Assembly: GCA_007692505.1 (NCBI GenBank)
Contig: REBX01000131.1
Location: forward strand, 1 to 54,803
Origin: Gemmatimonadales bacterium
GTDB lineage: Bacteria > Gemmatimonadota > Gemmatimonadetes > Longimicrobiales > Gaopeijiaceae
DNA length: 54,803 nucleotides
Reading direction: 5' to 3'
Under the pieces are notes generated by a model, which saw nothing but the letters and a program-made list of their open reading frames with translations, did not search any database and was not told the DNA's origin. Each line of letters opens with the position of its first letter. Position 1 is the stretch's first letter. Both the position numbers and the translations under genes were made by a program. Shown here piece by piece: positions 2,557-27,364 of the stretch.

Positions 2557-5348
2557 GAACCCGGATCCCTGCCTCCTCCCGGCTCCACCTCCTCCTGCCG
2601 GCCCTCGTCCTGCTGGGCACCGCCTGGGGATGCACCGACGCCGACTCCATCCTCTTTCCCGGAACGGCACAGGTCCTGGTGGAGGTGGAGACGTCCACGG
2701 AGGGCCGGGCCGGGGAAGTCCTGGGGACCCCCCTCGTCCTGCGGACCGTGGACCGCTACGGGAATCCCGTTCCTGAAGTCGACCTCGTCTTCGACGTGGT
2801 AACCGGAGGCGGAGCAGTGGAGAACCCGCCGCCCCGGACGGACCGGAGCGGACGTGCTACCCTTCCACGCTGGCGCATGGGCCCCCAACCGGGCCGGAAC
2901 ACGCTGGAGGTTCGGGCCGGAGGCTCTGTCGTCACCCGGGTCGACGTGGCCTCCGGTCCGGGCCTGCCCCACCTCCTGCGCCTGGAGGGTGGCCCCTCCC
3001 CGGACTCGGTGACGGTGGCCCGGACGCTGGACGCGCTTCCCGCCGTCGTGCTGGAGGATCGATTCGGGACACCCATTCCCGACACGGTGCTCCTGGTCAG
3101 TGCGTCGTCCGGGGGATCCCTCTCCGGTTCGGAGCTCCGAACCGATGACCGGGGACGGGCCACCCTTCCGGCCTGGACCCTGGGGACAGGGGCCGGCCCC
3201 CAGTTCCTCCTGACGCGCCTCGGGGGCGTCACGGCTCGAATCGAAGTGGAGGCCCTCCCCGATGAACCCGCCCAGATCGAGTGGACTCCCCCCCTCGACC
3301 TCCAGGCAGTGGCCGGCCTCGAGCTTCCGGGCCGGCTGCAATTGGAACTCCTGGACCAGTTCGGAAACCGGATCCGGGCAGGCCACCAGGTCTCCGTAAC
3401 CGTTGCCTCCGGTGGCGGCTCCCTCCGGGACAGCTCCCTGGCCCCCGATGGAGCGGGAAGACTGGATGTCGGCATCCTGACTCTGGGCCCGACGCCGGGT
3501 CCCAATCGGATCCAGGCCGAGGTCGTCGGCCTGGAGTCGGCCGAACTCGTGGTGGAGGGAATGCCGGAGGAGTGGGAGCCCAGCGGCCTCTTCTTCCGGG
3601 TGGGAGCAGTGCACATGAACCAGGGCTCCCAACGGATGGACGGGAGCATCGGCCTCGTCCGGCATCGGGCAGGCATCGTCCGCGTCCTGCCCGTGTCGGG
3701 GCGGGTCGCCCCGAAGCTTCCCCCGGCCGAGGTCACCGTGTTCCGGGACGGACTGGAGGTTGCCCGACAGGTGGTCGAGCCCTCCAGCGCCCCCGTACCC
3801 GAGATGCTGGATCCCACCGGTGTTCAGGTCTCCTGGAACCTCCCGCTTCCTGCAGAGGCCGTTCTGGGGGACCTGGAGGTGCAGGTCCTCATCGATCCCG
3901 ACGAGGAGGCCCGGGTCGTCTCCCGTCGCTACCACACCTGGCCGGAGGACGGAGTCCCTCACCTCCTGGAGGTCGAGGATCTCCCACCCTTCATCGTGCG
4001 CTTCGTGAGCATGCGGGATGCATCCACCGGGATACGGGGCAACATCGACGAGGACAACTTCGACGCCTTCATCCAGGACACGAGACGGGTCTTCCCCATC
4101 GGCCGGGACTCCCTCTACCTGGGCCCCGACTTCGTCACCAGCCTCTTCAACGGTGGGGAGGTGACCACCGGCGCCCTGGTCCGCCTCTGGAACGCGTGGA
4201 ATGCCAGCCCCGAGCTCCGCAACGAGTTCCTCCACGGCATCTTCCCAGCCGGTCGGGCCAGCGGGTTCTCCGGTGTCGCATACCTGGGGACGAACCCCAC
4301 CAGCCCCTTCCTCCGCCCGGTGGGCATCACCTGGGATGCGCTGGGCTCCGGGGCCGGATTCACCGTGGCCCACGAACTGGGACACAACATGGGCCAGCCC
4401 CACGCACCCTGCGGGAACCCCTCGGGGGTGGACCCCAACTTTCCCCACCCCAACGCCTCACTGGGTGTGGTGGGCTACGACCACATCGATGGTCGACTCG
4501 TGACCCCCAACAACCACCGGGACCTCATGAGCTACTGCGGTCCCCGCTTCATCAGCGACTACAACTACGAGAGGGTCCTGGTGTGGAGAGACACCAGCCC
4601 CATGGGACGCGGAGGCCCGGGATCGGGGGGGACCGGCTCCGGAGCGGCGTTGCAGGGCGCAGGCCCCTCGGGTCCCGCAATCCAGGTGAGTGCGGTGGAG
4701 ACCGACAAGGGAATCCGCACCGGTCCCATCCTCCCGGTCCGGGTCCCGGCCACCCCCGAACCCTCCACCCCCTCCCACCGGATCCGGGGGTGGGATGCAC
4801 GGGGCCAGCTCCTCTTCGACCGGGGAGCCCAGGCCGTGACCCTCTCCCACGCCCCCGACCCCTCCGAGCAGCATGTGGGCGCCGTGGTCCCCCTCTCTGC
4901 AGTGGACCTGGAGGCGCTGGACCGGGTCAGTGTGGACCCGGTGGGGGCGCCATCGGCCGCCCCGCCCGTGCCCCCCACCGCTGCCCTGGAGGATCGAACG
5001 TCCGATGATGCCCCTTCCCGGGTGCAGTGGAGTCGGGTGTCCCGTCTGGACGGAGGCCTGGAAGAGGCCCGCTCAGGCATTCGCCTGGAGGGGCCGGGCA
5101 TCCTCATGGAACCCGGTCCGGGCAGGGCCCCACCGGCCTATCTGGAGAACGGCCTGGAGCTCCACTGGGACCCCATGGTGTTCGTGCAGGTCGTGGTCCG
5201 GCACCCGGACCGGGACCAGATCCTGGGGATCGTGGATGGAGGTCATCTCCGTCTCGACCTCTGGGACCACCCGGTTGAACTGGAGTTCTCCGACGGCATC
5301 CGGAGCTGGTACTGGGGCTCCGACGGGCTGGAGCCACGGACGCCCTGA
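2553..5348 (+). CDS. probable lipoprotein with three Ig-like (Big/invasin-type) repeats and a C-terminal metzincin-type zinc metalloprotease domain
   Basis: ATG at 2553 overlaps the upstream stop (ATGA). The LLGTAWGC sequence is lipobox-like. Three repeats of the form D(R/Q)(Y/F)GN/TP(V/I)...GGG(A/S)...D..GRATLP are present. HELGHNMGQPH matches HExxHxxGxxH, followed by a DLMSYC Met-turn candidate. Confidence 0.75.
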   Translation: MRTRIPASSRLHLLLPALVLLGTAWGCTDADSILFPGTAQVLVEVETSTEGRAGEVLGTPLVLRTVDRYGNPVPEVDLVFDVVTGGGAVENPPPRTDRSGRATLPRWRMGPQPGRNTLEVRAGGSVVTRVDVASGPGLPHLLRLEGGPSPDSVTVARTLDALPAVVLEDRFGTPIPDTVLLVSASSGGSLSGSELRTDDRGRATLPAWTLGTGAGPQFLLTRLGGVTARIEVEALPDEPAQIEWTPPLDLQAVAGLELPGRLQLELLDQFGNRIRAGHQVSVTVASGGGSLRDSSLAPDGAGRLDVGILTLGPTPGPNRIQAEVVGLESAELVVEGMPEEWEPSGLFFRVGAVHMNQGSQRMDGSIGLVRHRAGIVRVLPVSGRVAPKLPPAEVTVFRDGLEVARQVVEPSSAPVPEMLDPTGVQVSWNLPLPAEAVLGDLEVQVLIDPDEEARVVSRRYHTWPEDGVPHLLEVEDLPPFIVRFVSMRDASTGIRGNIDEDNFDAFIQDTRRVFPIGRDSLYLGPDFVTSLFNGGEVTTGALVRLWNAWNASPELRNEFLHGIFPAGRASGFSGVAYLGTNPTSPFLRPVGITWDALGSGAGFTVAHELGHNMGQPHAPCGNPSGVDPNFPHPNASLGVVGYDHIDGRLVTPNNHRDLMSYCGPRFISDYNYERVLVWRDTSPMGRGGPGSGGTGSGAALQGAGPSGPAIQVSAVETDKGIRTGPILPVRVPATPEPSTPSHRIRGWDARGQLLFDRGAQAVTLSHAPDPSEQHVGAVVPLSAVDLEALDRVSVDPVGAPSAAPPVPPTAALEDRTSDDAPSRVQWSRVSRLDGGLEEARSGIRLEGPGILMEPGPGRAPPAYLENGLELHWDPMVFVQVVVRHPDRDQILGIVDGGHLRLDLWDHPVELEFSDGIRSWYWGSDGLEPRTP

Positions 5349-7284: not shown

Positions 7285-7319
7285 CAGCCCGGCTCGATCC
7301 CGCCCGTCCCGGCAGGCCC

Positions 7320-7361
7320 GAACCGGCCGCCGGCCCCGGCTCCGGGGCAGGCGGCCGGTTC
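7320..7361. terminator. long GC hairpin between convergent genes (candidate bidirectional terminator)
   Basis: GAACCGGCCGCC ... GGCGGCCGGTTC forms a 12-bp perfect stem. It encloses an inner hairpin GCCCCGG-ct-CCGGGGC. No U-tract is present. Confidence 0.5.
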
Positions 7362-7398
7362 CATTCAGGTCAGCCGGGAACCCCGGGCAACCGGTGAT

Positions 7399-8136
7399 TC
7401 ATTCCGACCCGTGCCTCAGGGCACCCAGCGGCTGAAGGGCCTGGGCGTCCAGGCCAGGGCCACCTGGGGCCCCAGAGTTCGAGAGGTCATGGCCGTAGCT
7501 CACGTCCACCAGGAGCCGCTCGGGCACCACCTCCATGCGAAGCCCCGCCTGCGTCTCCACCTCGTCCGACCCCATACCGAAGACCTCGGCGATGACGGTC
7601 CAGCGCGAATGGATGGGGAGGTCACCCCGCACACCCCAGATGGCCGCGCTCTCCCGCTCCACCTCCCCGACCCCCTGGGGGTCTTCCGTTACCAGGAGCC
7701 GGTTCATCATGGCCCCTGCATTCAGGTGGAGCATGGCCTCCCGTCCCGCAGAGGTCAGGGTGAGGGGGAGGTAGGCCATGGCCTCGGCCACCCGGGGCCC
7801 GTCGGTGGAGAAGGGAACGGCCACGCCCCCTACCAGGCCCAGTTCGGCAACGCCCCGACTCCAGATCGTGCTCTTCCCCTCCAGGATGGCGTGTCCGCGA
7901 CGGCTCCCCATGCCGGCATCGAAGACGGCCACACCGGTGGTGACCTCGAAGCCCGTCACCAGCTGGCAGGCGGGGAGGAACCAGGCCTCCTCCCCGCCGC
8001 CCCATGTCTCCAGCTGACAGGCACCGTAGTCCGTGATGCCGGCATCGTCCACGACCCAGGGCTGGGCCTGGATCCCGGCGGGAAGGGCAAGGAGGGCGAG
8101 AACGAGGAAGAGGCTGCGAAAGCGTCCGTTCGTCAT
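7399..8136 (-). CDS. hypothetical secreted/outer-membrane protein
   Basis: ATG at 8136 gives MTNGRFRSLFLVLALLALPAGIQAQP, a signal peptide. The body is Gly/Ala/Val-rich with alternating beta-strand-like segments. The ORF track start at 8157 is a TTG. Confidence 0.6.
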   Translation of the reverse strand: MTNGRFRSLFLVLALLALPAGIQAQPWVVDDAGITDYGACQLETWGGGEEAWFLPACQLVTGFEVTTGVAVFDAGMGSRRGHAILEGKSTIWSRGVAELGLVGGVAVPFSTDGPRVAEAMAYLPLTLTSAGREAMLHLNAGAMMNRLLVTEDPQGVGEVERESAAIWGVRGDLPIHSRWTVIAEVFGMGSDEVETQAGLRMEVVPERLLVDVSYGHDLSNSGAPGGPGLDAQALQPLGALRHGSE

Positions 8137-8325: not shown

Positions 8326-8388
8326 GGCCACCTGGACACCTTTTCTGGCCACCTGGACACCTTTGCTGGCCGTCTGGACACCCTGGCG
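8326..8388. repeat. 21-bp tandem direct repeat x3 (GGCCACCTGGACACCTTTkCT); the GGACAC core occurs five times from 8303
   Basis: Read directly: units at 8326-8346, 8347-8367 and 8368-8388. Two more GGACAC cores occur at 8306-8320. Confidence 0.85.
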
Positions 8389-8559: not shown

Positions 8560-8625
8560 TAGAATATACTAAAAACTAATAAGTCCGTCGGCAGGGCAGT
8601 ACGCTATACAAAATACTAATAAGTA
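8560..8625 (+). repeat. AT-rich twin box (ATAyAnnAAAAnCTAATAAG x2); homologous to 31605-31670
   Basis: tagaatatactaaaaactaataag (8560-8583) and ctatacaaaatactaataag (8604-8625) stand out in a ~70% GC background. They align with the two boxes at 31605-31670, which have the same spacing. Confidence 0.8.
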
Positions 8626-8688
8626 GAGGGCGGCTCTGCTGCCCGCCATCCATTATTCGGACCCGGGGGATGGCACAAAAGAGCGGGG

Positions 8689-8759
8689 CCCAGCCCGCCC
8701 CACGGCTACGAAGCGAAGCCCACGGGCCCAGCCCGCCCCACGGCTACGAAGCCCACGGG
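8689..8759. repeat. tandem duplication, 38 + 33 bp (CCCAGCCCGCCCCACGGCTACGAAGC[GAAGC]CCACGGG)
   Basis: Read directly. The second unit is identical to the first except for a 5-nt deletion. Confidence 0.85.
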
Positions 8760-8855
8760 CTCGGAAAGACCCACGACCCCGAAGCCCCCACCGGAAGCCC
8801 GAAGTCTCCGCCGGGATCCAGGGGTTCGGAAGTCCGCGCCCCGATCCCCTGCGCG

Positions 8856-8949
8856 TGCAGGGTTTCGTTCAATAATGGGCAAAACCCTGCAATGGCTCCG
8901 GCGCCGGCACCGCGTGCAGGGTTTTGTTCAATAGTGGGCAAAACCCGCA
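8856..8949 (+). repeat. twin hairpin element (two ~36-nt stem-loops 59 bp apart), copy A
   Basis: H1 (8856-8891) is TGCAGGGTTTcgttcaataatgggcaAAACCCTGCA, with a perfect 10-bp stem. H2 (8915-8949) is TGCAGGGTTTTgttcaatagtgggcAAAACCC-GCA. The same pair occurs at 31746-31840 in the same orientation and at 27251-27348 in reverse orientation. Confidence 0.9.
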
Positions 8950-8962
8950 CACACAGAGGTTC

Positions 8963-9106
8963 GGAAAACCGCAGAGGCGGGACGGGCTCCGGCGGAATGG
9001 AAAAACGTAGAGGCGAAACTGGCCCCAGGGGAACGGCTAACCGCAGAGGCCGGACTGGGCCCAGGGGAACGGAAAACCGCGGAGGCCGGACCGGGCCCGG
9101 CGGAGC
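8963..9106. repeat. 36-bp degenerate tandem repeat x4, exactly phased
   Basis: Units are 8963-8998, 8999-9034, 9035-9070 and 9071-9106. The consensus is GGAAAACCGCAGAGGCCGGACyGGGCCCrGGGGAAy. Confidence 0.85.
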
Positions 9107-9283
9107 GGGCCCCGCGATCCGGTGGCTCCGCAGCGCCGGTGGCGCTTCGCCGCACCAATGGGCTCCGCGACGGAGAGGATCCGCGACACAGAGGGGCTCC
9201 GCGAAGGAGCACGGCTGCCCAACGGAGCGAGAGCACGATACGGTGCGGTGCTGCCGACCGAGAGGAGCCGGAAAACACCGGGT

Positions 9284-9323
9284 GTTCGGGTTGTATTCGG
9301 ACAATGATTCGGCTTATGTTCGG
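9284..9323 (+). promoter_or_regulatory. two tandem 17-nt direct-repeat boxes (TTCGG-N6-TTCGG type); candidate SOS/LexA-like operator of imuB
   Basis: Box 1 is GTTCGGGTTGTATTCGG (9284-9300), 3 nt before ATG 9304. Box 2 is ATTCGGCTTATGTTCGG (9307-9323). Box 1 matches CTTCGGGTTATCTTCGG at 23520-23536, which has an identical 3-nt offset to the dnaE2 ATG. Confidence 0.55.
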
Positions 9324-10620
9324 TTTCCGCCTCCCGAGCCCTTCCCGAATCCCCGGATCGCCCGTCCGCATGTCCGCCTCCCGCACCTCCCTCTGCCTCC
9401 GGCTCCCCGCCTTCGAGCTCCGGCTGGAGCTCGTCCGTTCACCGGAACTGGACGCCACGTCGGTAGCGCTCCTGGCCCCCGGCGACGGCGGGGCCCGCCA
9501 GGAGATCGCCCAGGCGTCGGAGCGGGCCGGGCGGGCCGGGGTGCGACCGGGGATGACGGTCTCCCGGGCCGTGGCCCTCTGCCCGGGCCTCACTCTCCTG
9601 GAGCCCGACCCGGCCCACTACAACGCCGCCATGGAGGCCATCCTGGACCGCCTGTCCCGGGCCAGCCCGGTGGTGGAGTCCGTGGAGCGGGGCTGCGTCC
9701 ACGTGGGCGTGGACGGGCTGGACCGGCTCCTGGGCTCTCCCAGGGAGCAGGTGGACCGCATTCTGGAGCTCCTCTTCCAGGTCCTCCCCCGCCCCGTGGT
9801 GGCCGCCTTCCGGGCCGGGCGGGCACCAGGCACCTTCGCAGCGCAGGTCGCCAGCCGGGCCGCCCGCCCCGGCCTCCCCGTCCTGGTCAACGAGGCTGCA
9901 CTTACCGCCTTCCTGGCCCGGCAGCCCATGGAGACCCTCCCCCTCTCCCCCCGGGAGCTGGAGCGGCTCCACCGCCTGGACCTCCGCACCCTGGGCGACG
10001 TGGGCCGCCTCCCCGAAGCCGCCCTCCTGAGGCACCTGGGCCGGAAGGGTCGCACGATCCGGGCGCTGGCCCGGGGAGAGCAGGTCGACCCGGTGACCCC
10101 GGCGCACCGCCCCGAACCCATCCGCGTCCTCCTGGACCTTCCGGCCCCCACCCGGGAGGAGGGCCCCATGACCCGGGCCCTGGAGCGGATGATCGACCGG
10201 ATCCTGGCCCACGGGGACCGGCAGGACCGGAGCCTCCGGGCGCTCCGACTGGCCGCCACCCTGGAGGAGGGCGGCTCGTGGACGGCGGAGATCACCCTCC
10301 GGACCCCGTCGGCTCGCCGGGCGGACCTCCTCCGTCCCCTGGCCCACCGGGTGACCCTCCGGCCTCCCCCTCGGGCCGTGACCGCCCTGGAGCTGGAGGC
10401 CTTCGACTTCGGCCCCTCCTCCCTGCAGACCGGCCTGTTCGACCGGAGCGAGACGGGTGCCCGCCCCACCCATCCCGCCCCCGGATCCACCCTGGCCGAG
10501 GCAATTCGAGAACTCAAGCTCCGTCTGGGACACGCCCCCCTCTACCGGGTGGTGGAGCTGGAGCCCGACTCCCGGATCCCCGAACGACGCCATGCCCTCC
10601 TGGCCCTGGAGGAGGGGTGA
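9304..10620 (+). CDS. imuB: Y-family DNA polymerase, ImuB-like (mutasome subunit)
   Basis: SLCLRLPAFELRLEL resembles the ImuB N-terminus. ...GVRPGMTVSRAVALCPGLTLLEPDPAHYNAAMEAILDRL... shows Y-family palm/fingers-like blocks. I chose ATG 9304 because its motif-to-ATG geometry matches dnaE2. ATG 9370 is an alternative start. Confidence 0.75.
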   Translation: MIRLMFGFRLPSPSRIPGSPVRMSASRTSLCLRLPAFELRLELVRSPELDATSVALLAPGDGGARQEIAQASERAGRAGVRPGMTVSRAVALCPGLTLLEPDPAHYNAAMEAILDRLSRASPVVESVERGCVHVGVDGLDRLLGSPREQVDRILELLFQVLPRPVVAAFRAGRAPGTFAAQVASRAARPGLPVLVNEAALTAFLARQPMETLPLSPRELERLHRLDLRTLGDVGRLPEAALLRHLGRKGRTIRALARGEQVDPVTPAHRPEPIRVLLDLPAPTREEGPMTRALERMIDRILAHGDRQDRSLRALRLAATLEEGGSWTAEITLRTPSARRADLLRPLAHRVTLRPPPRAVTALELEAFDFGPSSLQTGLFDRSETGARPTHPAPGSTLAEAIRELKLRLGHAPLYRVVELEPDSRIPERRHALLALEEG

Positions 10621-12216: not shown

Positions 12217-15200
12217 ATGCGTTTCTGGTTGTCCGTCGGCCGCCTTGCCGGCCTTGCACTCTTCCTGACGCTGGTCTCCGCCGCCCCGGCGCTGGCCCAG
12301 GCCGTCACCACCTCCTCGCTCAACGGACGCGTCATCTCCACGGAGGGACAGCCCCTCCAGAACGTCCGCATCACCCTCACGAACACCCAGACCGGGACCT
12401 CCCAGGCCGCCCTCACCCGAGAAGACGGGCGGTTCAACTTCTCGGGTCTCCGCCCCGGTGGGCCCTACCGCCTGGATGCCGAGGGCCTGGGCTACACCGG
12501 CGAGGCCCTGGACAACCTCTTCCTCGCCCTGGGCGAGACGGAGCGGGTGGACTTCATCCTCTCCCCGCAGGCCATCGCCCTGGAGGGCATCGAGGTGGCG
12601 GGCCAGCGCACCGGAGCCATCATCTCCCGGGGCCGCACGGGCACCGGGACCGTCCTGGACGAGCGGGTCGTGACCTCCACGCCCACCATCTCCCGGAACT
12701 TCACCGACTTCATCCGCCTCACCCCGCAGGTCACGGCCGCCACCCCGGGCACCTCGGCGGCAGGTCGAAACAACCGGTACAACAACATCCAGATCGACGG
12801 GGCCGTGAACAACGACCTCTTCGGGCTGGCCGCCTCCGGCACCCCCGGAGGGCAGGCCGATGCACGCCCCATCACGCTGGAGGCGATCCAGGAGTTCCAG
12901 GTGAACCTGGCGCCCTTCGACGTCCGGCAGGGCGGCTTCACCGGGGCGAACATCAACGCCGTCACCCGGGGCGGGACGAACGACCTGCAGGGCACCGTGG
13001 CCTGGTTCGGCCGGAACGAGTCCCTCATCGGCCAGTTCAACGACTTCCAGGGGAACCGCTCCCCCGAGGTCGCCGACTTCGACCAGTCGGACCTGGCCTT
13101 CTCCCTGGGCGGCCCCATCGTCCGGGACCGGGCCCACTTCTTCGTGGCCGGTGAGCTCTCCCGGCGCACGGACCCCTACCCCGCCGTGGTGGGCGAGAAC
13201 ACGGGGTCGCCGGCCGGCGCCATCTCCGCCGCCGACATCGCCGAGATCGACTCCATCGTCCGCGCACGCTACGACTACGACCCCGGCGTGGCCGGCCCCT
13301 TCGGCCGGAGCACCGACTCCAACAACCTCTTCGCCCGCCTCGACGTGCAGCTGGCCCCCGAGCACCGCCTCGTCCTGCGGCACAACTGGGTGGATGCCAC
13401 CCAGGACAACTCCACCGGCGGAGCCGGGGCCACCTTCGGCTACTCCAACTCGGGCTACGGCTTCAACTCCGTGACGAACTCCACGGTGGCCCAGCTCAAC
13501 TCCACCCTGGGCGACGGCCTCGACAACGAGCTCCGGGTAGGACTCACCACGGTGCGGGACAGCCGGGACATCGGCACGGCCTTCCCCCGCTTCCGCATCG
13601 ACCTGGGCGGTCCCAACAACGTCCGGGTGGGCCCCGACGAGTTCTCCGGGCAGAACGCCCTGGACCAGGACATCCTGGAGATCACCAACGACCTGACCCT
13701 CTCCCGGGGGAACCACACCTTCACGGTGGGGACCTCCAACGAGTTCTTCCGGTTCTCCAACCTCTTCGTCCGGAACGCCTTCGGGAACTGGCGCTTCGGC
13801 TCCATGGAGGCCTTCCGGAACCAGACCCCCAACACGTACGAGTACTCCTTCCTCCTCCCCGGCGGGAACGAGCGGGCGGAGTTCCCCGTCCGACGCTGGT
13901 CCCTCTACGGGCAGGACCGCTGGGAGGCCACCCGGGACCTGGTCCTCACGTACGGCCTCCGCATGGACCTGACCCAGCTCCCCGACACCCCGGCCCGGAA
14001 CCCCGTCCTGGCCGCTGCAAACCTGGGACGGAATACCGACGAGGTCCCCTCGTCGGCCCTCCAGTTCAGCCCCCGACTGGGCTTCAACTGGGACGTGTAC
14101 GGCGACCGGACGACCCAGCTGAGGGGCGGCCTGGGCCTCTTCTCGGGCCGGACCCCCTTCGTCTGGATCTCCAATGCCTACGGGAACACGGGCATCGACT
14201 ACGTCCGGTTCACCTGCCGGAACGCCGAGGTCCCCACCTTCAGCGCCGACCCCTCGGCCCAGCCCACGGCGTGCGCCGGGGGCGACGCCGCCTTCGCGCC
14301 CAACGAGATCAACACGGTGGACCCGGACTACCGGTTCCCCCAGGTCTTCCGGGCCTCCACCGCAGTGGACCGGGAGCTGGGCATCGCAGGCATGGTGGGC
14401 ACCCTGGAGGGCCTCTACACCCGGACCCTGCAGGACATCCGGTACCAGAACCTCCTCATCGAGGAGGACACGGGCGCCGGGATGGTGGAGGGACGCCCCC
14501 AGTTCCGGGTGAACCGCCTGGAGGCCGGTGAAGGCGAGATCCCGGTGGGCGAGGTCATCGACATCACGAATACCTCCAAGGGCTACAGCTGGAACCTGAC
14601 GGCCCAGCTCCAGCGCCCCGTCCTGGACGGCTGGGGCTTCGGGGCCGCCTACACCCTCTCGGAGGCGCAGGACGTGAACCGGGGCGGCTCCAGCCAGGCC
14701 GTCTCCAACTGGCGCTTCAACCCCACTGCCGGCGATCCCAACAACCTGCCGGCAGCCCGCTCCAACTTCCTGATCCGCCACCGGATCCTGGCCTCCACCA
14801 CCTGGGAGGTGGCGGTCTCCGAGCGCTTCCCCACACTGGTCTCGGTGGTCTACGTGGCCGAGAGCGGCCAGCCCTACACCTACGTGTATTCGGGCGACCT
14901 GAACGGCGACGGCCAGACCTCAAACGACCTCATCTGGGTGCCGGCCGGGCAGGACGAGATCCGGTTCCGGAGCACCTCCGACGTGTCGGCGGACCAGTCC
15001 TGGCAGAACCTGAACGCGTATATCGACTCCACCCCTTGCCTCCGGAACGCCCGGGGCGGGATCGTGGAGCGGGGCGCCTGCACGGAGCCCTGGCACCACC
15101 AGTTCGACCTCCGGCTCGCCCAGGAGGTCCGGACCTTCGGGACCCAGCGGGCCGAGGTGGTCCTGGACATCCTGAACGTGGGGAACCTGCTGAACCGGGA

Positions 15201-15399
15201 CTGGGGCCGAAAGGAGTTCGTGTCCAACGAGTCCTTCAACCTCCTGGAGGTGGCCAGCGCCAGCCAGCGGGGCGACGAGCCCGCCGTGGTGAACGGCCGG
15301 GCCCTCATGAACCCCTTCGGACCCAGGGAGACCTCCAACTCCATCAGCAACCTGGCCTCCCGCTACCAGATCCAGCTGGGGGTGCGCTACTCCTTCTGA
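12217..15399 (+). CDS. TonB-dependent receptor with an N-terminal carboxypeptidase-regulatory-like domain (Oar-like)
   Basis: Signal peptide is MRFWLSVGRLAGLALFLTLVSAAPALAQA. The CarbopepD_reg-like block is LNGRVISTEGQPLQNVRITLTNTQTG...DGRFNFSGLRPGGPYRL. The length is 1060 aa and the protein ends in the terminal beta-strand QLGVRYSF. Confidence 0.85.
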   Translation: MRFWLSVGRLAGLALFLTLVSAAPALAQAVTTSSLNGRVISTEGQPLQNVRITLTNTQTGTSQAALTREDGRFNFSGLRPGGPYRLDAEGLGYTGEALDNLFLALGETERVDFILSPQAIALEGIEVAGQRTGAIISRGRTGTGTVLDERVVTSTPTISRNFTDFIRLTPQVTAATPGTSAAGRNNRYNNIQIDGAVNNDLFGLAASGTPGGQADARPITLEAIQEFQVNLAPFDVRQGGFTGANINAVTRGGTNDLQGTVAWFGRNESLIGQFNDFQGNRSPEVADFDQSDLAFSLGGPIVRDRAHFFVAGELSRRTDPYPAVVGENTGSPAGAISAADIAEIDSIVRARYDYDPGVAGPFGRSTDSNNLFARLDVQLAPEHRLVLRHNWVDATQDNSTGGAGATFGYSNSGYGFNSVTNSTVAQLNSTLGDGLDNELRVGLTTVRDSRDIGTAFPRFRIDLGGPNNVRVGPDEFSGQNALDQDILEITNDLTLSRGNHTFTVGTSNEFFRFSNLFVRNAFGNWRFGSMEAFRNQTPNTYEYSFLLPGGNERAEFPVRRWSLYGQDRWEATRDLVLTYGLRMDLTQLPDTPARNPVLAAANLGRNTDEVPSSALQFSPRLGFNWDVYGDRTTQLRGGLGLFSGRTPFVWISNAYGNTGIDYVRFTCRNAEVPTFSADPSAQPTACAGGDAAFAPNEINTVDPDYRFPQVFRASTAVDRELGIAGMVGTLEGLYTRTLQDIRYQNLLIEEDTGAGMVEGRPQFRVNRLEAGEGEIPVGEVIDITNTSKGYSWNLTAQLQRPVLDGWGFGAAYTLSEAQDVNRGGSSQAVSNWRFNPTAGDPNNLPAARSNFLIRHRILASTTWEVAVSERFPTLVSVVYVAESGQPYTYVYSGDLNGDGQTSNDLIWVPAGQDEIRFRSTSDVSADQSWQNLNAYIDSTPCLRNARGGIVERGACTEPWHHQFDLRLAQEVRTFGTQRAEVVLDILNVGNLLNRDWGRKEFVSNESFNLLEVASASQRGDEPAVVNGRALMNPFGPRETSNSISNLASRYQIQLGVRYSF

Positions 15400-15465
15400 T
15401 GGTCCCCCGGTGGACCTCCGGCCTCCGGGCCGGGGGCCTCCGCCGGAAGCAGAGCAGCCGGCAGG

Positions 15466-15496
15466 CGGCCGGGCTCCCCAGGTGGGGGCCCGGCCG
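15466..15496. terminator. GC hairpin between convergent genes (candidate terminator)
   Basis: CGGCCGGGC-tccccaggtgggg-GCCCGGCCG forms a 9-bp stem, followed by TTCGTC. Confidence 0.45.
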
Positions 15497-15528
15497 TTCG
15501 TCATGGTGGCGGACCTCCTGCCCGTCCG

Positions 15529-16905
15529 TCACTCCTCCAGGGCCACCCGGAGCGTCTTCACGTTCACGAACTCCAGGATCCCGGCCCGTCCCAGCTCCCG
15601 GCCGTAGCCGCTGTCCTTCACCCCGCCGAAGGGAAGGCGCGGGTCGGAGGCCACCGACTCGTTCACGGACACGATCCCCGCCTCCAGCTCCTCCCGGGCC
15701 AGGCGCTCCCCCAGGGCCTGGTCGGCGGTGAAGACGGCGGCCCCCAGCCCCCAGGGAGAGTCGTTCGCCACCTGTACGGCCTCCTCCGTGCTCCCCACCG
15801 GGAGGATGGCCGCCACCGGCCCGAAGAGCTCCTCGTCGGCCGCCGGCATCCCCTTTCGTACGTCGGCCAGGACCGTGGGCGGGTAGTACCAGCCGCGGCC
15901 CTCGGGGACCTCCCCTCCCAGAAGGAGGCGGGCCCCGGCCTCCACGCTCTCGGTGACCTGGCGGTGGAGGGTGTCCCGGAGGTCCTCCCGGGCCAGGGGA
16001 CCCACCGTGCTGGCACTGGCCAGCGGGGGTCCCACCACCGCCTTCCGCATCTGGGCCACCAGCGCCTCCTGGAAGGCCTCCAGGACCTCCTCCACCACCA
16101 CGAAGCGCTTGGCGGCCACGCAGGACTGCCCCGAGTTCACCAGGCGGGCCCGGGCCGCGACGCGGGCCGCCTCCTCCACCCGGGCGTCGGCCAGGACCAG
16201 GTACGGGTCGCTCCCGCCCAGCTCCAGGACCGTCTTCTTGAGGGCCCGCCCTGCCGAGGCAGCCACCTCCCTGCCCCCCTCCGTGCTCCCGGTGAAGGTC
16301 ACGGCCCGGATCTCGGGGCGCGCCATGAGGGCCCCTGCCCCCTCGTGGTCCGTGTACACGGCCTGGAAGAGCCCGGGGGGCGCGCCGGCCTCCACCCAGA
16401 GCTCCTCCAGCGCCGCCGCGCAGCCCGGCACGTTGGGGGCGTGCTTCAGGAGGACGGCGTTCCCCGCCATGAGGGCCGGGCACCCGAAGCGGAGGGCCTG
16501 CCAGAAGGGGAAGTTCCAGGGCATGATGGAGAGGATGACCCCCAGGGGCCGATACACGACCCGGGCCCGGGCCCCCTCCACCTCCACGGGCTCGTCGGCC
16601 AGGTGGGCCGCCCCGTGCTCCGCGTAGTACCGGGCCGCCCAGGCACACTTCTCCGCCTCCTTCCGCCCCTGGGCCAGGGGCTTCCCCATTTCCGAGGCCA
16701 TGAGGCGACCCCACCGGTCCGCGTCGTCCTCCAGGAGGCCGGCCAGCGCCTCCAGGACCCGGGCCCGCTCCTCGAACGACCAGCCCTCCCAGCGGCGCCG
16801 GGCCTCCACCGCACTCCGGACCCGGGCTTCCAGCTCGGCCTCCGAATCCAGGGGCTGTTCCTTCACGGTCCGGCCGGTGGCCGGGTCGATCACCCGAAAC
16901 GCCAT
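15529..16905 (-). CDS. NAD(P)-dependent succinate-semialdehyde dehydrogenase-like aldehyde dehydrogenase (YneI/Sad-like)
   Basis: Long colinear similarity to E. coli YneI as I recall it: YRPLGVILSIMPWNFPFWQ, LLKHAPNVPGCA, VTFTGSTEGG, ELGGSDP, GQSCVAAKRF, FGGVKDSGYGRE. Confidence 0.85.
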   Translation of the reverse strand: MAFRVIDPATGRTVKEQPLDSEAELEARVRSAVEARRRWEGWSFEERARVLEALAGLLEDDADRWGRLMASEMGKPLAQGRKEAEKCAWAARYYAEHGAAHLADEPVEVEGARARVVYRPLGVILSIMPWNFPFWQALRFGCPALMAGNAVLLKHAPNVPGCAAALEELWVEAGAPPGLFQAVYTDHEGAGALMARPEIRAVTFTGSTEGGREVAASAGRALKKTVLELGGSDPYLVLADARVEEAARVAARARLVNSGQSCVAAKRFVVVEEVLEAFQEALVAQMRKAVVGPPLASASTVGPLAREDLRDTLHRQVTESVEAGARLLLGGEVPEGRGWYYPPTVLADVRKGMPAADEELFGPVAAILPVGSTEEAVQVANDSPWGLGAAVFTADQALGERLAREELEAGIVSVNESVASDPRLPFGGVKDSGYGRELGRAGILEFVNVKTLRVALEE

Positions 16906-17095
16906 TGTGACTCCCTTGTGGGGCTGTTGAAGAAATACGGTGGCCGCGGGGAAGAGGAGCCCGGTGTGGCATCGCCTCGGGGCCCGGCCTACCTTGGATC
17001 CCCGGGCCGGGTTCGTCGTTCCGTTTCCGGCGTCCGACCCGCCGCTCCCGTACCGTTCGAACCGCTCATCCCCAGGTCACTTCCCGGAGGTCCCC

Positions 17096-19528
17096 GTGCC
17101 CCCTGTCCGCCCCGCCTGCCCCACGCCCGCCCCGTCCCTCCCGTCCGGGCCCCGCGGGGCACGGCTCGCTGCCCTGCCGGCCCTCCTGGCCGGAACCGTC
17201 CTCGTCCTCCTGTGGGCCCTCCTCCCGGCCGGTCTGGGGGCCCAGACGCCGGCCCCGCCCACCCCGGCCACCGGCGGCGCCCAGGGAGCCATCCCCACCC
17301 CCCTGGAGCACTTCGGGCACGAGCTGGGCGCAGAGGGCGAGCTGGCGAACTGGGACGACCTTCTGGCCTACTACGACCAGGTGGCGGCGGCCAGCGACCG
17401 GATCACCCTGGACACGCTGGGCACCTCCACCCTGGGGCGGCCCTTCGTGAAGATGATCATCACCAGCGAGGAGAACCACCGGAACCTGGACCGCTACCGG
17501 GAAATCCAGCACCGGCTGGCCGACCCCCGCACCATCGGGTCCGAGGAGGAGAAGCGGGCCCTCATGGAGGAGGGGCGCACCGTGGTCCTCACCACCTCCC
17601 ACATCCACTCCACCGAGGTGGGAGCCGGGCAGGTCCCGGCCCGCCTGGTCCACCGCCTGGCCACCACGGACGAGCCCGACCTCCTCCACGTCCTGGACGA
17701 GACGATTCTGGTCCTGGTGCCCTCGCTGAACCCCGACGGCACCCAGCTGGTGAGCGACTGGTGGCACGAGTGGAGGGACACCGAGTTCGAGGGCGCGCCC
17801 CTGAACCGCCTCTACCACCACTACATCGGGCACAACAACAACCGGGACTGGTTCTTCTTCGCCCAGAAGGAGACCCGGATGACGGTGAAGGGGGTCCACA
17901 ACACCTGGCGCCCCCAGATCGTCCACGACATCCACCAGATGGGCTCCGGGGCCGCCCGCTTCTTCGTGCCGCCCTACATCGACCCGGTGGAGCCCAACGT
18001 GGATCCCCTCCTGATCTCGGCGCTGAACTCCCTGGGCACCTGGATCCGGGCCGACATGACCCGGGAGGGCTTCGACGGCATCGTCACCGACGCCATCTTC
18101 GACATCTACACCCCGGCCCGGGCCTACATGCACTACCACGGCGGGGTGCGGATCCTGTCGGAGACGGCCAGTGCGAGCTGGGCCCGCCCCATCGAGATCG
18201 ACTTCGAGAACCTGGGGGGCACGGCGGACTACAACGCGCAGCAGATGAGCTCCAACTTCCCGTCGCCCTGGATGGGCGGGCGCTGGGGGCTGGACGACGT
18301 CCTGGACTACATGGAGGCGGCCTCCCTCACCATCCTGGTGAACGCCGCCCGGAACCGGGCTTTCTGGCTGGACAACTTCGTGCGGATCCACGAGCGGGCA
18401 GTGGCCGGGTGGGACACCTGGCCCGACGCCTGGGTGATCCCGGCAGGACAGGAGTACGACGCCGGCATGGAGCAGCTCCTCCGGGTCCTCACAACCGGCG
18501 ACGTGGAGGTCCACGTGGCGGAGGAGGGCTTCACGGTGGAGGGACGCCAGGTCCCCGAGGGCTCGTGGGTCGTCCCCATGCAGCAGCCCTACGCGGCCTT
18601 CGCCCAGACCATGCTGGAGCCCCAGGAGTACCCCGACCTCCGCCAGTACCCCGGCGGCCCGCCGGTGCGGCCCTACGACGCCACGGCCCACTCCCTCCCC
18701 CTCCTCTTCGGCATCGAGGCCTTCCCGGTGGAGGCCCTCCCCCAGGTGAGCCTCTCGGCGCCGGTGGAGCGCTTCACCGAGTTCTCCTTCCCCGTTCCCG
18801 CCCACCTCATGGGGGCCGACGCACCCCGCATCGGGCTCTACCGCTCGTACGCCGAGCCCATGCCCCAGGGGTGGACCCGCTGGCTCTTCGACCTGGCTGG
18901 GATCCGCTACACCCCCCTCCGGAATGACGACATCCGGGCCGGCGGGCTCGCCAATGACCTGGACGTGATCATCTTCCAGGACCAGGGGGCCAACTCCATC
19001 CGGAACGGCCACTCCCCGCAGCGGATGCCCGAGCCCTACGCCGGTGGGATCGGCGAGGAGGGCGAGGCGGCGCTCCGGGACTTCGTGGAGGCCGGGGGCC
19101 GCATCGTGGCCATCGACGCCGCCACGGACTGGGCCATCGACGCCTTCGACCTGGGGGTGGCCAATGCGGTGACGGACCTGCCCTCCCAGGACTTCTACAT
19201 CCCGGGCTCCATCCTCCACCTGGACCTGGACCCGGACCACGAGATCGCCCGACAGGTCCCCACCGAGAACTTCGCCTGGTACTGGCGGACGAGCCGGGCC
19301 TTCCAGGTGTCGGACCCCGATGCCCGCATCGTGGGCACGTACGGCGAGGGCGACCCCCGCCTGGCCGGCTGGGTGCTGGGCGAGGAGTTCGTGGCGGGCC
19401 TGCCCGCCCTGGTGGACGTGCCCATGGGCCAGGGGAACGTGATCCTCTTCGGGTTCCAGCCCAACTTCCGGGGGCAGACCGTGGGCTCGTGGCCCCTCTT
19501 CTTCAACGCCCTCCGCCGGAATGAGTGA
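17096..19528 (+). CDS. secreted M14-family metallocarboxypeptidase-like protein with a C-terminal GATase1-like domain
   Basis: GTG at 17096 lies 5 nt after GGAGG. Signal peptide is ALPALLAGTVLVLLWALLPAGLGAQ. Supporting blocks are TTSHIHSTEVGAGQ (HxxE zinc motif), PSLNPDG, NNNRDWFF and DIHQMG. The C-terminal DVIIFQDQG...GGRIVAIDAA is GATase1-like. The start is uncertain. Confidence 0.75.
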   Translation: MPPVRPACPTPAPSLPSGPRGARLAALPALLAGTVLVLLWALLPAGLGAQTPAPPTPATGGAQGAIPTPLEHFGHELGAEGELANWDDLLAYYDQVAAASDRITLDTLGTSTLGRPFVKMIITSEENHRNLDRYREIQHRLADPRTIGSEEEKRALMEEGRTVVLTTSHIHSTEVGAGQVPARLVHRLATTDEPDLLHVLDETILVLVPSLNPDGTQLVSDWWHEWRDTEFEGAPLNRLYHHYIGHNNNRDWFFFAQKETRMTVKGVHNTWRPQIVHDIHQMGSGAARFFVPPYIDPVEPNVDPLLISALNSLGTWIRADMTREGFDGIVTDAIFDIYTPARAYMHYHGGVRILSETASASWARPIEIDFENLGGTADYNAQQMSSNFPSPWMGGRWGLDDVLDYMEAASLTILVNAARNRAFWLDNFVRIHERAVAGWDTWPDAWVIPAGQEYDAGMEQLLRVLTTGDVEVHVAEEGFTVEGRQVPEGSWVVPMQQPYAAFAQTMLEPQEYPDLRQYPGGPPVRPYDATAHSLPLLFGIEAFPVEALPQVSLSAPVERFTEFSFPVPAHLMGADAPRIGLYRSYAEPMPQGWTRWLFDLAGIRYTPLRNDDIRAGGLANDLDVIIFQDQGANSIRNGHSPQRMPEPYAGGIGEEGEAALRDFVEAGGRIVAIDAATDWAIDAFDLGVANAVTDLPSQDFYIPGSILHLDLDPDHEIARQVPTENFAWYWRTSRAFQVSDPDARIVGTYGEGDPRLAGWVLGEEFVAGLPALVDVPMGQGNVILFGFQPNFRGQTVGSWPLFFNALRRNE

Positions 19529-23505: not shown

Positions 23506-23536
23506 TTGAAGCCCCACGTCTTCGGGTTATCTTCGG
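23506..23536 (+). promoter_or_regulatory. candidate dnaE2 promoter (TTGAAG-16 nt-TATCTT) overlapped by the 17-nt direct-repeat box CTTCGGGTTATCTTCGG
   Basis: The -35 is at 23506-23511, the -10 at 23528-23533 and the box at 23520-23536. ATG 23540 lies 7 nt after the -10, which would make the transcript leaderless. The box matches 14 of the 17 positions of the imuB box. Confidence 0.5.
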
Positions 23537-23539: not shown

Positions 23540-26500
23540 ATGTCCCCCTCCACGTCCCCTTCCACCTCTCCCGGCACCCCCCCGTACGTGGAGCTCCATG
23601 CCCACTCCGCCTACTCGTTCCTGGACGGGGCCTCCCACCCGGAGGAGCTCGTCCTCCGGGCCCGGGAGCTGGGGCAGCCGGCCCTGGCGCTGACGGACCA
23701 CGACGGGCTCTACGGGAGCATGGAGTTCGCCCGGGCCGCCCTGGAGGCGGAGCTCCACCCCATCACCGGCGTGGAGCTCACGGTGGCCCTCCCCCCGGTG
23801 GCCCTCTCCCCCGGCGGCCGAGGGGCAGCAGGGACCGTCGGGGACCCGGACCAGCCCCCGGAGCGACAGACGGCCCACATCACCCTCCTGGCCGAGTCGT
23901 CGGAGGGGTACGGCAACCTCTCGGAGCTGGTCACCGAGTCCCACCGGCGGGGGCCTCGGGGCGCCCCAGCCCTCCCCCTGGAGGAGGTGCTGGACCCGGC
24001 CCGGACCGAGGGTCTCGTCCTCCTCACCGGGTGCCGCGACGGCCCCCTCCACCATGCCGCCCGGCGTTCGGTGGCCCGGGCCGAGGAGGTGGCCCGGGAG
24101 ATGGTGGAGGCCTTCGGGCCCGGGCAGGTCTACGTGGAGCTCCAGGAGAACCGGGTCCGGGGCGATGCCCGGCGCACCCGGCTCCTGGGAGCGCTGGCGG
24201 ACCGGATGGACCTCCCGGTGGTGGCCACGGGGAACGTCCACTACCACCGGCCCGGGCTCCACCGGCTCCAGGACGTCCTCACCGCCATCCGCCACCGGAC
24301 CACGCTGGACGGCGCCCACGCCCACCGACGGCCCAATGCCTGCTTCCACCTGGCCCCTCCGGAAGAGATGGCCCGGCGGTTCTCCAGCCGCCCCGACGCC
24401 CTCCGCTCCACCCTGGAGATCGCGGACCGCTGCCGGGGCTTCCACCTGGCCCGGGACCTGGACTACGTCTTCCCCGACTTCCGGGGGAGCGACCGGGGGT
24501 CCGCCATGGAGGTGCTCTCGGCCCTGACGGGGGCACGGCTGGAGGAGCGGTACGGCCCCGAGGATCGGGACCGGGCCCGGGCGCGTCTGGACGAGGAGCT
24601 CCGGCTGGTGGAGCACCACGGCCTGGCGGGCTTCTTCCTGGTCTACCGGGACATCATGGAGCTGGCCCGCGAGGTGGCCCACCGGGTGCGCCGGGGGTCT
24701 GCCCGGAGCCGGGCCGGCCTCCCGCCGGGCCGGGGGCGGGGGTCGTCCGTGTCCTCCATCATCTGTTACCTCGTCGGGCTCTCCCACGTGGACCCGGTGG
24801 AGTCGAACCTCTTCCTGGGCCGGTTCCTTAACGACGCCATGGGCTCTGTCCCCGACATCGACCTGGACTTCCCCCGAGAGATCCGGGAGGAGCTCATCCT
24901 GGAGGTCCACCGGCGATGGGGTCCGGACCACACCGGCCTGGTGGCCACCTTCCCCACGTACCGGCTCCGCTCGGCGGTGCGGGAAGTGGGCAAGGTGCTG
25001 GAGATCGCCCCCGGCGACCTGGAGAAGATCGCCCGGCTGGCGGAGCACCGGTCCGCCGGCGGGCTCCGGGAGGACCTGGAGCACATGCCCGAGTTCGCGG
25101 ACCGGGCCGAAAGCCGCCCCTGGCAGCACTTCCTGGAGCGGGTGGACGAGATCGCCGGGCTCCCCCGCCACATCTCCCAGCACGTGGGGGGGATGGTGAT
25201 CTCGAGCCGGCCCCTCCACCGCCTGGTCCCCCTGGAGCCCGCCGCCATGGAGGGCCGGACCCTCTGCCAGTGGGACAAGGACTCCTGCTCCGATGCGGGC
25301 TTCATCAAGATCGACTTCCTGGCCCTGGGCATGCTCTCCCTGGTGGAGGAGGCCGTGGACCTCATCGATGCCCGCCGACCCGCCGGGGAGGAGGCCCTGG
25401 ACCTCTCCCGCATCGACCTGGAGGACGAGGCGGTCCACGACCGCATCGCGGCAGGGGACACGGTGGGGATCTTCCAGGTGGAGAGCCGGGCCCAGATCCA
25501 GATGATCCGGAGGACCCGGCCCCGGACCCTCCCGGACCTGGCCATCCAGGTGGCGCTGGTCCGGCCGGGCCCCATCGTGGGCGGCGCGGTGAACCCCTAC
25601 GTCCGACGCCGGGAGGCACTCCGGAAGGACCCGACGTACCGGCCCCCGGTGGACCACCCCCTCCTGGAGGAGCCCCTGGCCGAGACCCTGGGGATCATCG
25701 TCTTCCAGGACCAGGTCCTCCAGGTCTGCCGGGCGCTGGCGGGGTTCACCGACGGCCAGGCGGAGAGCCTCCGGCGGGCCATGAGCCGGAAGCGGTCCGG
25801 CGAGGCCATGCGGGCCCACCGGGACGCCTTCCTGGAGGGCGCCCGGGCCCGGGGCGTCGACGAGGAGACGGCAAACCGGATCTTCCAGCAGGTGGTGGGC
25901 TTCTCCGAGTTCGGCTTCCCCAAGTCCCACGCGGCGGCCTTCGCGCTGCTGGCCTACCAGTCCGCCTGGCTCCGGCACCACTTCCCCACCGAGTACTACG
26001 TGGCCCTCTTCAACAACCAGCCCATGGGCTTCTACTCGCTGGACGCCCTGGGCCGCGATGCGGGCCGAAACGGGATCCGGATCCTCCCGCCCCACCTGGA
26101 ACACAGCCGGGTTCGCTGCACCCCCGAGGGCGACGACCTGAGGGTGGGGCTCGCTTTCGTCCGGGGGTGGGGCGAGGAGGTGGCCCGGCAGGTCGTGGCG
26201 GAGCGGGAGGCCCGGGGCCCCTTCCGGAGCCTGTCGGACTTCCTGGCCCGAACCCCCTCGGCCCTCCGGCGCCCGGCGGTGGAGAACCTGGTGTGGGTGG
26301 GCGGGCTGGACCACCTGGGGTTGGGGCGCCGCGAACTCCTCTGGCAGGCCGGGCTCTGGCTGGGCCCCGACGAGGAGCGGGGCCGGGGGCGGGGGCGGGC
26401 CGACGACCCCCAGCTCGCCCTGGGGCTCGGCGACCTGGAGGACCGGGCCACCCGGTTTCGCCCGGTGGACGACCGGGACGAGCTCGTGGCCGAGTACCGG

Positions 26501-27091: not shown

Positions 27092-27168
27092 GGGTGGTGT
27101 CGCGGTTGAAGTGTCGCCTGGGTCACCAGGGTCCCGTTCAGCACCGGCACAGGCGATGCGCGGTCGGG

Positions 27169-27245: not shown

Positions 27246-27250
27246 TGCCC

Positions 27251-27348: not shown

Positions 27349-27364
27349 CGCGCGGGCCGCCAGG

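Follow-up and report, generated by a model that had tools for sequence, protein, structure and literature searches.

The DNA analysed here, referred to below as the window, is the 54,803-nucleotide contig REBX01000131.1 of a Gemmatimonadales bacterium (assembly GCA_007692505.1), and three of its intergenic spacers carry the element in question, a module of two hairpins that we call E1 (8856-8950, plus strand), E2 (27252-27348, minus strand) and E3 (31746-31841, plus strand). Genes in this sequence, whose G+C content is 72%, were called from third-position GC together with Pfam and NCBIfam matches. By its ImuB and citrate synthase homologues the sequence belongs to the Gemmatimonadota, near Gemmatimonadales MAGs. 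E1 lies between two divergent genes, one for a secreted protein (7399-8136, minus strand) and the other imuB on the plus strand, which starts at 9304 in the database call but probably begins close to 9370. E2 separates the 3' ends of two convergent genes, dnaE2 (23540-27091, plus strand) and an MBL-fold hydrolase gene (27500-28420, minus strand); for the dnaE-like gene the best model is DnaE2/ImuC at 936.7 bits, slightly below the 939-bit cut-off, as against 715 bits for DnaE1. E3 is situated between two minus-strand genes, one encoding a DUF4236 protein (30004 to ~31299) and the other an open reading frame (ORF) at 32144-33280. The gene calls agree with the three settings, divergent, convergent and upstream of a gene, that an earlier note on this DNA had assigned to the copies. 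The spacers that bear the modules measure 0.4 to 1.2 kb and are the longest in the window. These are three different gene contexts whose neighbouring genes share no function, and no homology was found between the genes left of E1 and left of E3.

The repeated unit is a 36-nt palindrome with GC-rich arms and an AT-rich loop. The six hairpins were aligned over 46 columns without gaps, and an nhmmer profile built from them found exactly six full matches in the window, with E-values of 1e-11 to 1e-14, all of them within the three doublets; the profile detected no solo copies. With a 21-mer and up to three mismatches, four matches were obtained in the window against none in 100 shuffles. Start-to-start spacing within the doublets is 59, 60 and 60 bp. 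Both the location of the element at these three loci and the separation of paired hairpins by about 60 bp had been claimed before, and both are borne out. Over ~105 nt the modules are 71-76% identical to one another and so diverge by 24-29%; conservation is highest in the arms.

In E1, hairpin a (H1a, 8856-8891, plus strand) is formed by the arms TGCAGGGTTTCG and CAAAACCCTGCA around a 12-nt AT-rich loop and folds as DNA at -10.5 kcal/mol (z -3.7), whereas hairpin b (H1b, 8915-8950, plus strand) reaches -13.1 kcal/mol (z -5.1) with a 3' arm that lacks a T, so that A10 bulges. The corresponding hairpins of E2 are H2a (27313-27348, minus strand; TGTAGGATTTTC...GGAATATCCTGCA), which bears compensated A-T and C-G pairs, and H2b (27252-27288, minus strand), where TGTAG...CTACA encloses a weak inner stem and the DNA fold is worth -5.4 kcal/mol. 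In E3, H3a occupies 31746-31781 and H3b 31806-31841, both on the plus strand; the outer stem of H3b has decayed and its DNA fold amounts to -5.3 kcal/mol (z -1.5). Between the two palindromes of a doublet, which share their orientation, lies a small GC palindrome. The inter-hairpin spacer is partly conserved among the modules (TCCGGnCGCCGG) and is palindromic in E1, as the mini-palindrome CCGGCGCCGG at 8898-8907, and in E2, as GGTCCCGGCGCCCGGACC at 27292-27309.

The loops, TTCAATAATGGG, read in the same direction in both units, with ~92% identity when the units are taken as direct repeats and ~78% when they are taken as inverted ones, as judged by inspection. The 3' arm tells the a hairpins, with CCTGCAAT or CCTGCACA, from the b hairpins, with CC(G/A/T)(C)ACAC. 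Because a and b differ consistently there, the doublet rather than the single hairpin is the inherited unit. H1a and H3b are the exception to this clean split: over 37 nt, comprising the 5' part of H3b, the two are 97% identical, which suggests from the sequences an exchange between units. Small ORFs beginning at an ATG after hairpin a are not conserved between copies, as judged by inspection. When the complement of the loop was sought elsewhere in the window as a possible small-RNA target, only the hairpins themselves matched. A 16-nt sequence between the AT-rich boxes described below and E1, CCATCCATTATTCGG at 8648-8663, could base-pair with the hairpin loops over 8 nt (AATAATGG); this complementarity is probably due to chance and has no counterpart upstream of E3.

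Because each unit is itself a palindrome, every ~105-nt module has two competing folds, the twin hairpins or one long hairpin tipped by the spacer palindrome. The long hairpin, whose tip in E1 is the mini-palindrome at 8898-8907, is the minimum-energy fold for E1 and E2. The modules fold with z-scores of -2.3 to -6.8 as RNA of the module strand and of -2.9 to -4.5 as DNA, while the single hairpins, as DNA, range from -5 to -13 kcal/mol (z -1.5 to -5.1), H3b and H2b being weak at about -5 kcal/mol. Summed over the six hairpins, RNA energies slightly favour the module strand, at -102.7 against -88.5 kcal/mol for the opposite strand, because several pairs are G.U on the former; H3b by itself folds better on the opposite strand.

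Compensatory changes reported in the earlier note do exist in the alignment. The pair of columns 13 and 36 is G-C in H1a, G.T in H3a and A-T in H2a, and TGCAG...CTGCA has turned into TGTAG...CTACA in H2b; to these we can add columns 18 and 31, which hold G-C, G.T and C-G. As evidence of selection on structure the changes are anecdotal: two pairs are altered on both sides, a number reached in 170 of 500 shuffles of these six related sequences, and 74% of cells in the six hairpins are paired compared with 73% in the shuffles. The bulge said to be shared by the second hairpins was found in H1b and H3b only, H2b adopting another register. Judged from the sequences, a structure is plausible, and six copies do not decide whether selection acts on it or which strand is the relevant one.

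E1 and E3 have more in common than the doublet. They share ~140 nt around the hairpins and, further upstream, twin AT-rich boxes (AT boxes), so that their common unit, with collinear blocks, spans at least 240 nt and comprises a box CCAGGGGTTCGGAAnTCCGC, a GTCTCCGCC block, the twin AT boxes and the doublet. E2 consists of the core alone, without AT boxes. The latter are 19 nt each (TATAYYAAAAACTMATAAS), have a spacing of exactly 40 bp, enclose a small CCGnCGG element, and occur only upstream of E1 (TATACTAAAAACTAATAAG and TATACAAAATACTAATAAG, 8565-8623, plus strand) and of E3 (31610-31668, plus strand). Their distance to the hairpin region varies from 78 nt in E3 to 233 nt in E1. The strongly AT-rich islands of the window are confined to the AT boxes, the hairpin loops and one promoter-like spot. 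By sequence comparison, at least two of the copies thus derive from a larger unit no shorter than 240 nt.

Directly 5' of hairpin a in E1 lies a box, CCAGGGGTTCGGAAGTCCGC..CCCCTG (8818-8851, plus strand), that is common to E3 and is echoed in 36-bp repeats at 8954-9108. Its counterpart in E3, CCAGGGGTTCGGAAATCCGCCCTGCA (31720-31745, plus strand), is possibly a third hairpin unit that has lost its loop: only 16 of 2000 shuffles reached the score of its alignment to a loop-deleted hairpin. The similarity of the E1 box to such a hairpin is not significant, and we rejected the loop-deleted third hairpin as a general account of the 5' box, since it is supported for E3 only.

Private GC-rich tandem repeats, whose periods range from 13 to 38 bp, border each module to its left and right. 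A 36-bp repeat in four copies (8962-9108) adjoins E1; other arrays beside the modules lie at 8686-8787, 27158-27242, 27386-27516, 31343-31406, 31510-31602 and 31913-32027, and a further one in the E1 spacer at 8326-8382. The sequence GGTGGC(C)AG is common to the 21-22-bp arrays left of E1 and left of E3. Local duplication seems to come easily to the region. A sigma-54 promoter considered within the 22-bp repeats left of E3 was dismissed on inspection, its GG-to-GC spacing being one base short. The private tandem repeats at every copy, the flanks shared by E1 and E3 and the fold as a single long hairpin had all been overlooked in the earlier description.

Counterparts of these loci in Gemmatimonadales relatives were retrieved through protein homology: two imuB loci, L014 and L015, with ImuB proteins 67% and 62% identical to that of the window, and six citrate synthase loci, L016-L021, at 87-89% identity. 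The sequence fetched amounts to ~86 kb in total and is partly near-duplicate. Neither nhmmer nor a covariance model of the element (R1) found the element anywhere in these eight loci, the orthologous positions included. In both imuB loci the region upstream of the gene is ~200 bp, and the relatives' tetR-imuB spacer measures 194 bp compared with ~1.2 kb in the window. In L016-L021, as in the window, the gene for citrate synthase stands next to the MBL gene, and the spacers of these loci are short. In L016 and L018-L020 a hut operon follows the MBL gene, in the place that E2 occupies in the window, and in L018 and L019 dnaE2 comes further on, in convergent orientation. Searches with tblastn confirmed the shared genes in the relatives' loci and found there no counterpart of the two genes that intervene between tetR and imuB, of the DUF4236 gene or of the ORF at 32144-33280. 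From these differences in gene order and gene content it follows that E1, E2 and probably E3 sit at breaks in the synteny of this lineage. A composite transposon or island bounded by E1 and E2, or by E1 and E3, was rejected, the enclosed genes being syntenic in relatives without the hairpins. In L018, the stretch 12252-18083 between the MBL hydrolase gene and dnaE2 holds the hut operon, with urocanase, arginase-family and amidohydrolase genes, and others, all of which are absent at 27092-27499 of the window.

Public collections yielded no further copies. An exact scan for GGGTTTYGKTCAATARTGGG through GTDB representative genomes and JGI metagenomes returned chance matches in low-GC DNA only; E2 itself fails this strict 20-mer, and the scans therefore say little about diverged copies, though they do show that neither collection contains the source genome. 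Chance matches were likewise all that a loop-pattern scan of viral contigs produced, and no meaningful match to the module or to the AT boxes came from plasmids and phages searched with blastn.

We then compared the modules with known classes of structured or mobile sequence. Over the whole window, the sole Rfam match at gathering thresholds was a cobalamin riboswitch elsewhere, and permissive scans of the E1 and E3 spacers gave generic long-hairpin microRNA matches only, far below threshold. The earlier failure to assign the element to a known RNA family therefore holds, with Rfam silent at the modules. Its distinction from attC sites and from the ends of insertion sequences (IS) is confirmed as well: inspection found no R''/L''...L'/R' core sites with the consensus RYYYAAC...GTTRRRY, and no terminal inverted repeats or target duplications at the homology boundaries such as a miniature inverted-repeat transposable element (MITE) would have. 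The window contains no integrase, and its scanned ORFs no transposase, integrase or HUH domain. The copies lie 4-18 kb apart with housekeeping genes between them, unlike an integron cassette array. A CRISPR mini-array, which usually has three or more direct repeats with unique spacers of ~30-40 nt and comes with cas genes or a leader, does not describe them either, there being only two units per locus, a 23-nt 'spacer' that is conserved between loci, and no cas genes in the window.

Nor do the hairpins behave as a simple operator or terminator, two roles against which the earlier note had already argued. Three matches to the direct repeat TTCGG-N6-TTCGG (nTTC-N7-nTTC) occur in the window, where 0.11 are expected: two upstream of imuB (9285-9300 and 9308-9323) and one that ends 4 nt before the dnaE2 start codon (23521-23536). 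The same motif precedes imuB in L014 (~714-735) and L015 (~9925-9946), both of which lack the hairpins. The LexA box of Alphaproteobacteria is a GTTC-N7-GTTC direct repeat, which the motif resembles, and on sequence grounds TTCGG-N6-TTCGG is a candidate SOS/LexA-type box for this group of Gemmatimonadota. As imuB and dnaE2 have this candidate motif of their own, which would account for their regulation, the hairpins are not their operator, and the closeness of these genes to E1 and E2 is probably incidental. As to termination, no T run follows the hairpins on either strand, a terminator scan calls nothing at the modules, and E1 lies between divergent gene starts. Other convergent gene ends (7285-7398, 15400-15528, 44784-44841 and 46665-46740) carry strong, unique, GC-only hairpins without U tracts; since these are unrelated to the repeat family, the latter is not the standard terminator of the organism. 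Their sequences suggest that transcript ends in this organism depart from the canonical intrinsic-terminator pattern.

The class that the element resembles most is one with which it had been contrasted. REPINs are extragenic doublets built from repetitive extragenic palindromic (REP) elements with fixed spacing that form a hairpin in single-stranded DNA or mRNA, show frequent compensatory changes and are mobilised by REP-associated tyrosine transposases (RAYTs) (PMC3116915); in Pseudomonas fluorescens, REPIN groups have spacings of 71 or 110 bp (PMC3116915). Like REPINs and bacterial interspersed mosaic elements (BIMEs) of enterobacteria, the modules are short, extragenic, imperfect palindromes in doublets of fixed spacing, here 59-60 bp; the whole unit folds as a long hairpin and compensatory changes occur; placement is indifferent to orientation, and terminal inverted repeats and target duplications are absent (PMC3116915). 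Doublets, long-hairpin fold, compensatory changes and extragenic placement irrespective of orientation are thus traits of REPINs and BIMEs (PMC3116915), and the contrast drawn in the earlier note does not hold. Differences nonetheless exist. The two units are direct here and inverted in REPINs; they are longer, at 36 nt with a 12-15-bp stem, and have a conserved AT-rich loop; E1 and E3 show no GTAG-type head, and the copies are 24-29% diverged.

Other hairpin-bearing elements share some of these features. Hairpin-only derivatives of the IS200/IS605 family known as palindrome-associated transposable elements (PATEs), like the ends of IS608, carry a pair of subterminal hairpins that are alike yet can be told apart and that face the same way on one strand, and the family lacks terminal inverted repeats, makes no target duplication and is recognised on single-stranded DNA. 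Our modules are alike in their paired, same-facing hairpins and in the apparent absence of terminal inverted repeats and target duplications. They differ in that the window has no tnpA or tnpB gene, that the left junctions of the three copies reveal no conserved target tetranucleotide, and that the stems are longer than those of IS608. The intergenic mosaic elements of rhizobia (RIMEs) and MITEs of the Correia and enterobacterial repetitive intergenic consensus (ERIC) types are also ~100-nt intergenic units of large palindromes that form long hairpins when transcribed. We found no sequence similarity to them, and MITEs of the Correia type carry terminal inverted repeats and make target duplications, neither of which is seen here.

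We therefore regard the three loci, with a probability of roughly one half, as copies of a REP-doublet/REPIN/PATE-like extragenic palindromic repeat private to this lineage, a new variant of that class, with which BIMEs and RIMEs can also be grouped. The copies are confined to spacers, are indifferent to the orientation of neighbouring genes, are inherited as doublets and retain hairpin potential despite 24-29% divergence. Furthermore, they are absent from the matching spacers of relatives and lie at synteny breaks amid tandem repeats, two traits not described in PMC3116915. Together, confinement to spacers, the doublet, the fold, the absence in relatives and the synteny breaks argue for a spreading repeat rather than a conserved regulator of specific genes. 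By analogy the element appears to work like the REPIN class. REPINs number tens to hundreds per genome, with a RAYT gene flanked by the repeats, and the present element is known from three doublets on one 54.8-kb contig; since, moreover, its units are not inverted, we do not file it as a REPIN.

In such a scenario a non-autonomous unit would have entered this lineage and multiplied there. Another part of the genome would code for the enzyme that recognises its hairpins on single-stranded DNA, in the likeliest case a Y1/HUH transposase (RAYT or TnpA-IS200 type), whose mode of action would require neither terminal inverted repeats nor target duplications. Alternatively, segmental duplication together with gene conversion might have spread it. 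Effects on the neighbourhood would be secondary, the hairpins perhaps acting as stable RNA 3' ends, as blocks to read-through, or as hot spots of slippage and rearrangement.

Several observations weigh against such a repeat. Only three modules are visible in 55 kb, and the scanned ORFs of the window include no RAYT or TnpA gene. By their asymmetric loops the two units are direct repeats, where REPIN units are inverted, and copies as diverged as 24-29% do not point to recent activity. At least 240 nt are common to E1 and E3, with the box, the GTCTCCGCC block and the twin AT boxes, and duplication of a larger unit, such as an RNA gene with its promoter, fits this pair better than independent insertions of 105 nt. 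The conservation of AT-rich loops in a 72% GC genome hints at a sequence-specific constraint. The GTDB and JGI scans, finally, used one strict 20-mer and were blind to diverged relatives.

A separate lead came from the arms. Viral contigs scanned for TGCAGGGTTT-N12-20-AAACCCTGCA gave 13 loci, whereas two shuffled control patterns gave 0 and 1. Loci in Moraxella phages proved to be iteron- or operator-like clusters downstream of a primase-helicase gene, an actinobacterial prophage locus was another iteron-like cluster, within a spacer, and a protein-coding 138-bp tandem repeat matched by chance; these make up most of the 13. The 10-mer TGCAGGGTTT occurs in clusters, in both orientations and partly with 21-bp spacing, in L022 (8630-8950), L023 (2060-2230) and L049 (~3030-3100). 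Such clusters have the look of operators or of iterons at an origin, and a relation to the element of the window is improbable.

Two other loci, L026 and L029, carry the pattern as a hairpin within the terminal repeats of an IS5-family IS, 12 nt upstream of the transposase ATG. The hairpin reads TGCAGGGTTT(C/T)GT...AAACCCTGCAAT over 36 nt, and H1a has the same 13-nt arm, length and AAT tail. The IS (L026 6083-7576; L029 and L053-L056) is of a Paracoccus type, with 21-bp terminal repeats, a 448-amino-acid transposase with DUF772 and DDE domains, and a 14-bp stem in its hairpin. Further copies, retrieved by protein homology, keep the hairpin and show one compensated change, CAAGG/CCTTG; we found no description of its role. 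The modules thus resemble this 5' hairpin (L026, L029, L053-L056) in a near-identical 13-nt arm, TGCAGGGTTT(C/T)GT, in the 36-nt length and the AAT tail, and in a structure kept with a compensated pair. They differ from it in that the IS has a single, internal hairpin before the transposase ATG, the loops are unrelated and the host belongs to another phylum.

Among the other explanations, the main rival is a small-RNA gene or cis-acting structured RNA, an idea that we think improbable. The unit shared by E1 and E3 would then be a paralogous RNA gene with the AT boxes as its promoter region and the hairpins as its body or 3' end, and E2 a truncated copy or an element of the 3' untranslated region of the MBL gene. 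Such a gene would account for the collinear conserved blocks that E1 and E3 have in common all the way from the AT boxes through hairpin b, for the position of the AT boxes as nearly the sole strongly AT-rich islands of the window, for the conserved loops and for the better summed RNA energy on the module strand, and one sigma-70-like site does overlap the first AT box on that strand. Yet no promoter-like site turned up at E3 or E2, -10-like hexamers vary from box to box (by inspection), the distance from box to hairpins shifts from 78 to 233 nt, and E2 lacks the AT boxes altogether. No U tract follows the hairpins, no Rfam family matches, the covariation is not significant, H3b folds better on the opposite strand, and relatives do not have the element. 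Broader, and in our view doubtful, is the proposal that the unit of at least 240 nt is an undescribed functional element of an uncultured Gemmatimonadota lineage, either a set of paralogous structured small RNAs or the cis site of a new hairpin enzyme of single-stranded DNA that nicks the AT-rich loop. Should the version with an enzyme site be true, its arms would be homologous to the conserved 5' hairpin of an alphaproteobacterial IS5-family element, and this would mean that the hairpin is recognised across phyla. A protein that binds duplex DNA is also unlikely. Here the four TGCAGGGTTT half-sites of each module would form an operator, enhancer, insulator or nucleoid-protein site, in keeping with arms that are the best-conserved part of the element, with twin palindromes at fixed spacing that recall paired operators, and with the clustering of identical half-sites as iterons or operators in unrelated prophages (0 and 1 loci for the shuffled patterns). 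Half-sites 16 bp apart, a conserved loop and compensated arms fit a hairpin better than a dimer site, however; one copy lies between convergent 3' ends with nothing there that needs regulation, neighbouring genes have no common function, imuB and dnaE2 possess their own motif, and we have no candidate for the binding protein.

Descent from an IS is still harder to credit. In that case the hairpin would be homologous to the one 12 nt upstream of the transposase start in the Paracoccus-type IS5-family element, and the modules relics or derivatives of such an IS. L026 and L029 indeed carry TGCAGGGTTT(C/T)GT...AAACCCTGCAAT at 36 nt inside the IS terminal repeats, six positions outside the searched pattern agree with H1a together with the loop length, a profile of the IS left end matches H1a with an E-value of 2e-5 within the window, and homology-fetched IS copies conserve the hairpin with its compensated CAAGG/CCTTG pair. 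But the IS was found by searching with the window's own arms, which makes the match post hoc, and other matches to the same pattern are clearly coincidental. The likeness is limited to the arms, so that covariance model R1 scores the IS hairpins at E-values of 0.03 to 0.7; the window has no IS terminal repeats, transposase remnant or homology outside the hairpin, and an internal hairpin of a 5' untranslated region would not be mobilised alone. Least credible of all, and very improbable, is a module that terminates transcription or stabilises RNA 3' ends. The positions of E2, where two genes converge, and of E3, which follows a minus-strand gene, would suit such a role, and a near-palindromic module would work in both directions; the missing U tract on either strand, the empty terminator scan, the position of E1 between divergent gene starts and the unrelated GC-only hairpins at other gene ends all speak against it.

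If the REP/REPIN-like interpretation is true, it would extend this class of hairpin repeats to Gemmatimonadota. To our knowledge, though no literature search was aimed at it, no repeat of the REP/REPIN class has been described in that phylum. It would also be an unusual variant, with direct units, conserved AT-rich loops and ties to the growth of tandem repeats and to breaks in gene order, and it would be useful both for genome annotation and for understanding how repeats reshape compact genomes. Annotators should not read the hairpins as a regulator of the adjacent SOS mutagenesis genes. If the element is an RNA gene or an enzyme site instead, it would represent a new family, which the present data do not show.

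Some features of the window lie outside the modules. The genes imuB (9304-10620) and dnaE2/imuC (23540-27091) are separated by 13 kb, and no imuA-like gene was recognised beside either of them; in the relative L014 an ORF directly follows imuB. A regulator of the PafC type, with helix-turn-helix, WYL and WCX domains, is encoded at 3-1016 on the plus strand, truncated by the contig start and 8 kb from imuB; in other phyla, regulators with a WYL domain govern damage responses that do not depend on LexA. Beyond E3, a TonB-dependent receptor gene (33327 to ~35700, minus strand) is preceded upstream by the cobalamin riboswitch (35738-35943, minus strand; 58.8 bits, E 4e-12). At its right end the window carries a methionine synthase (MetH) gene and a homocysteine methyltransferase/MTHFR gene.

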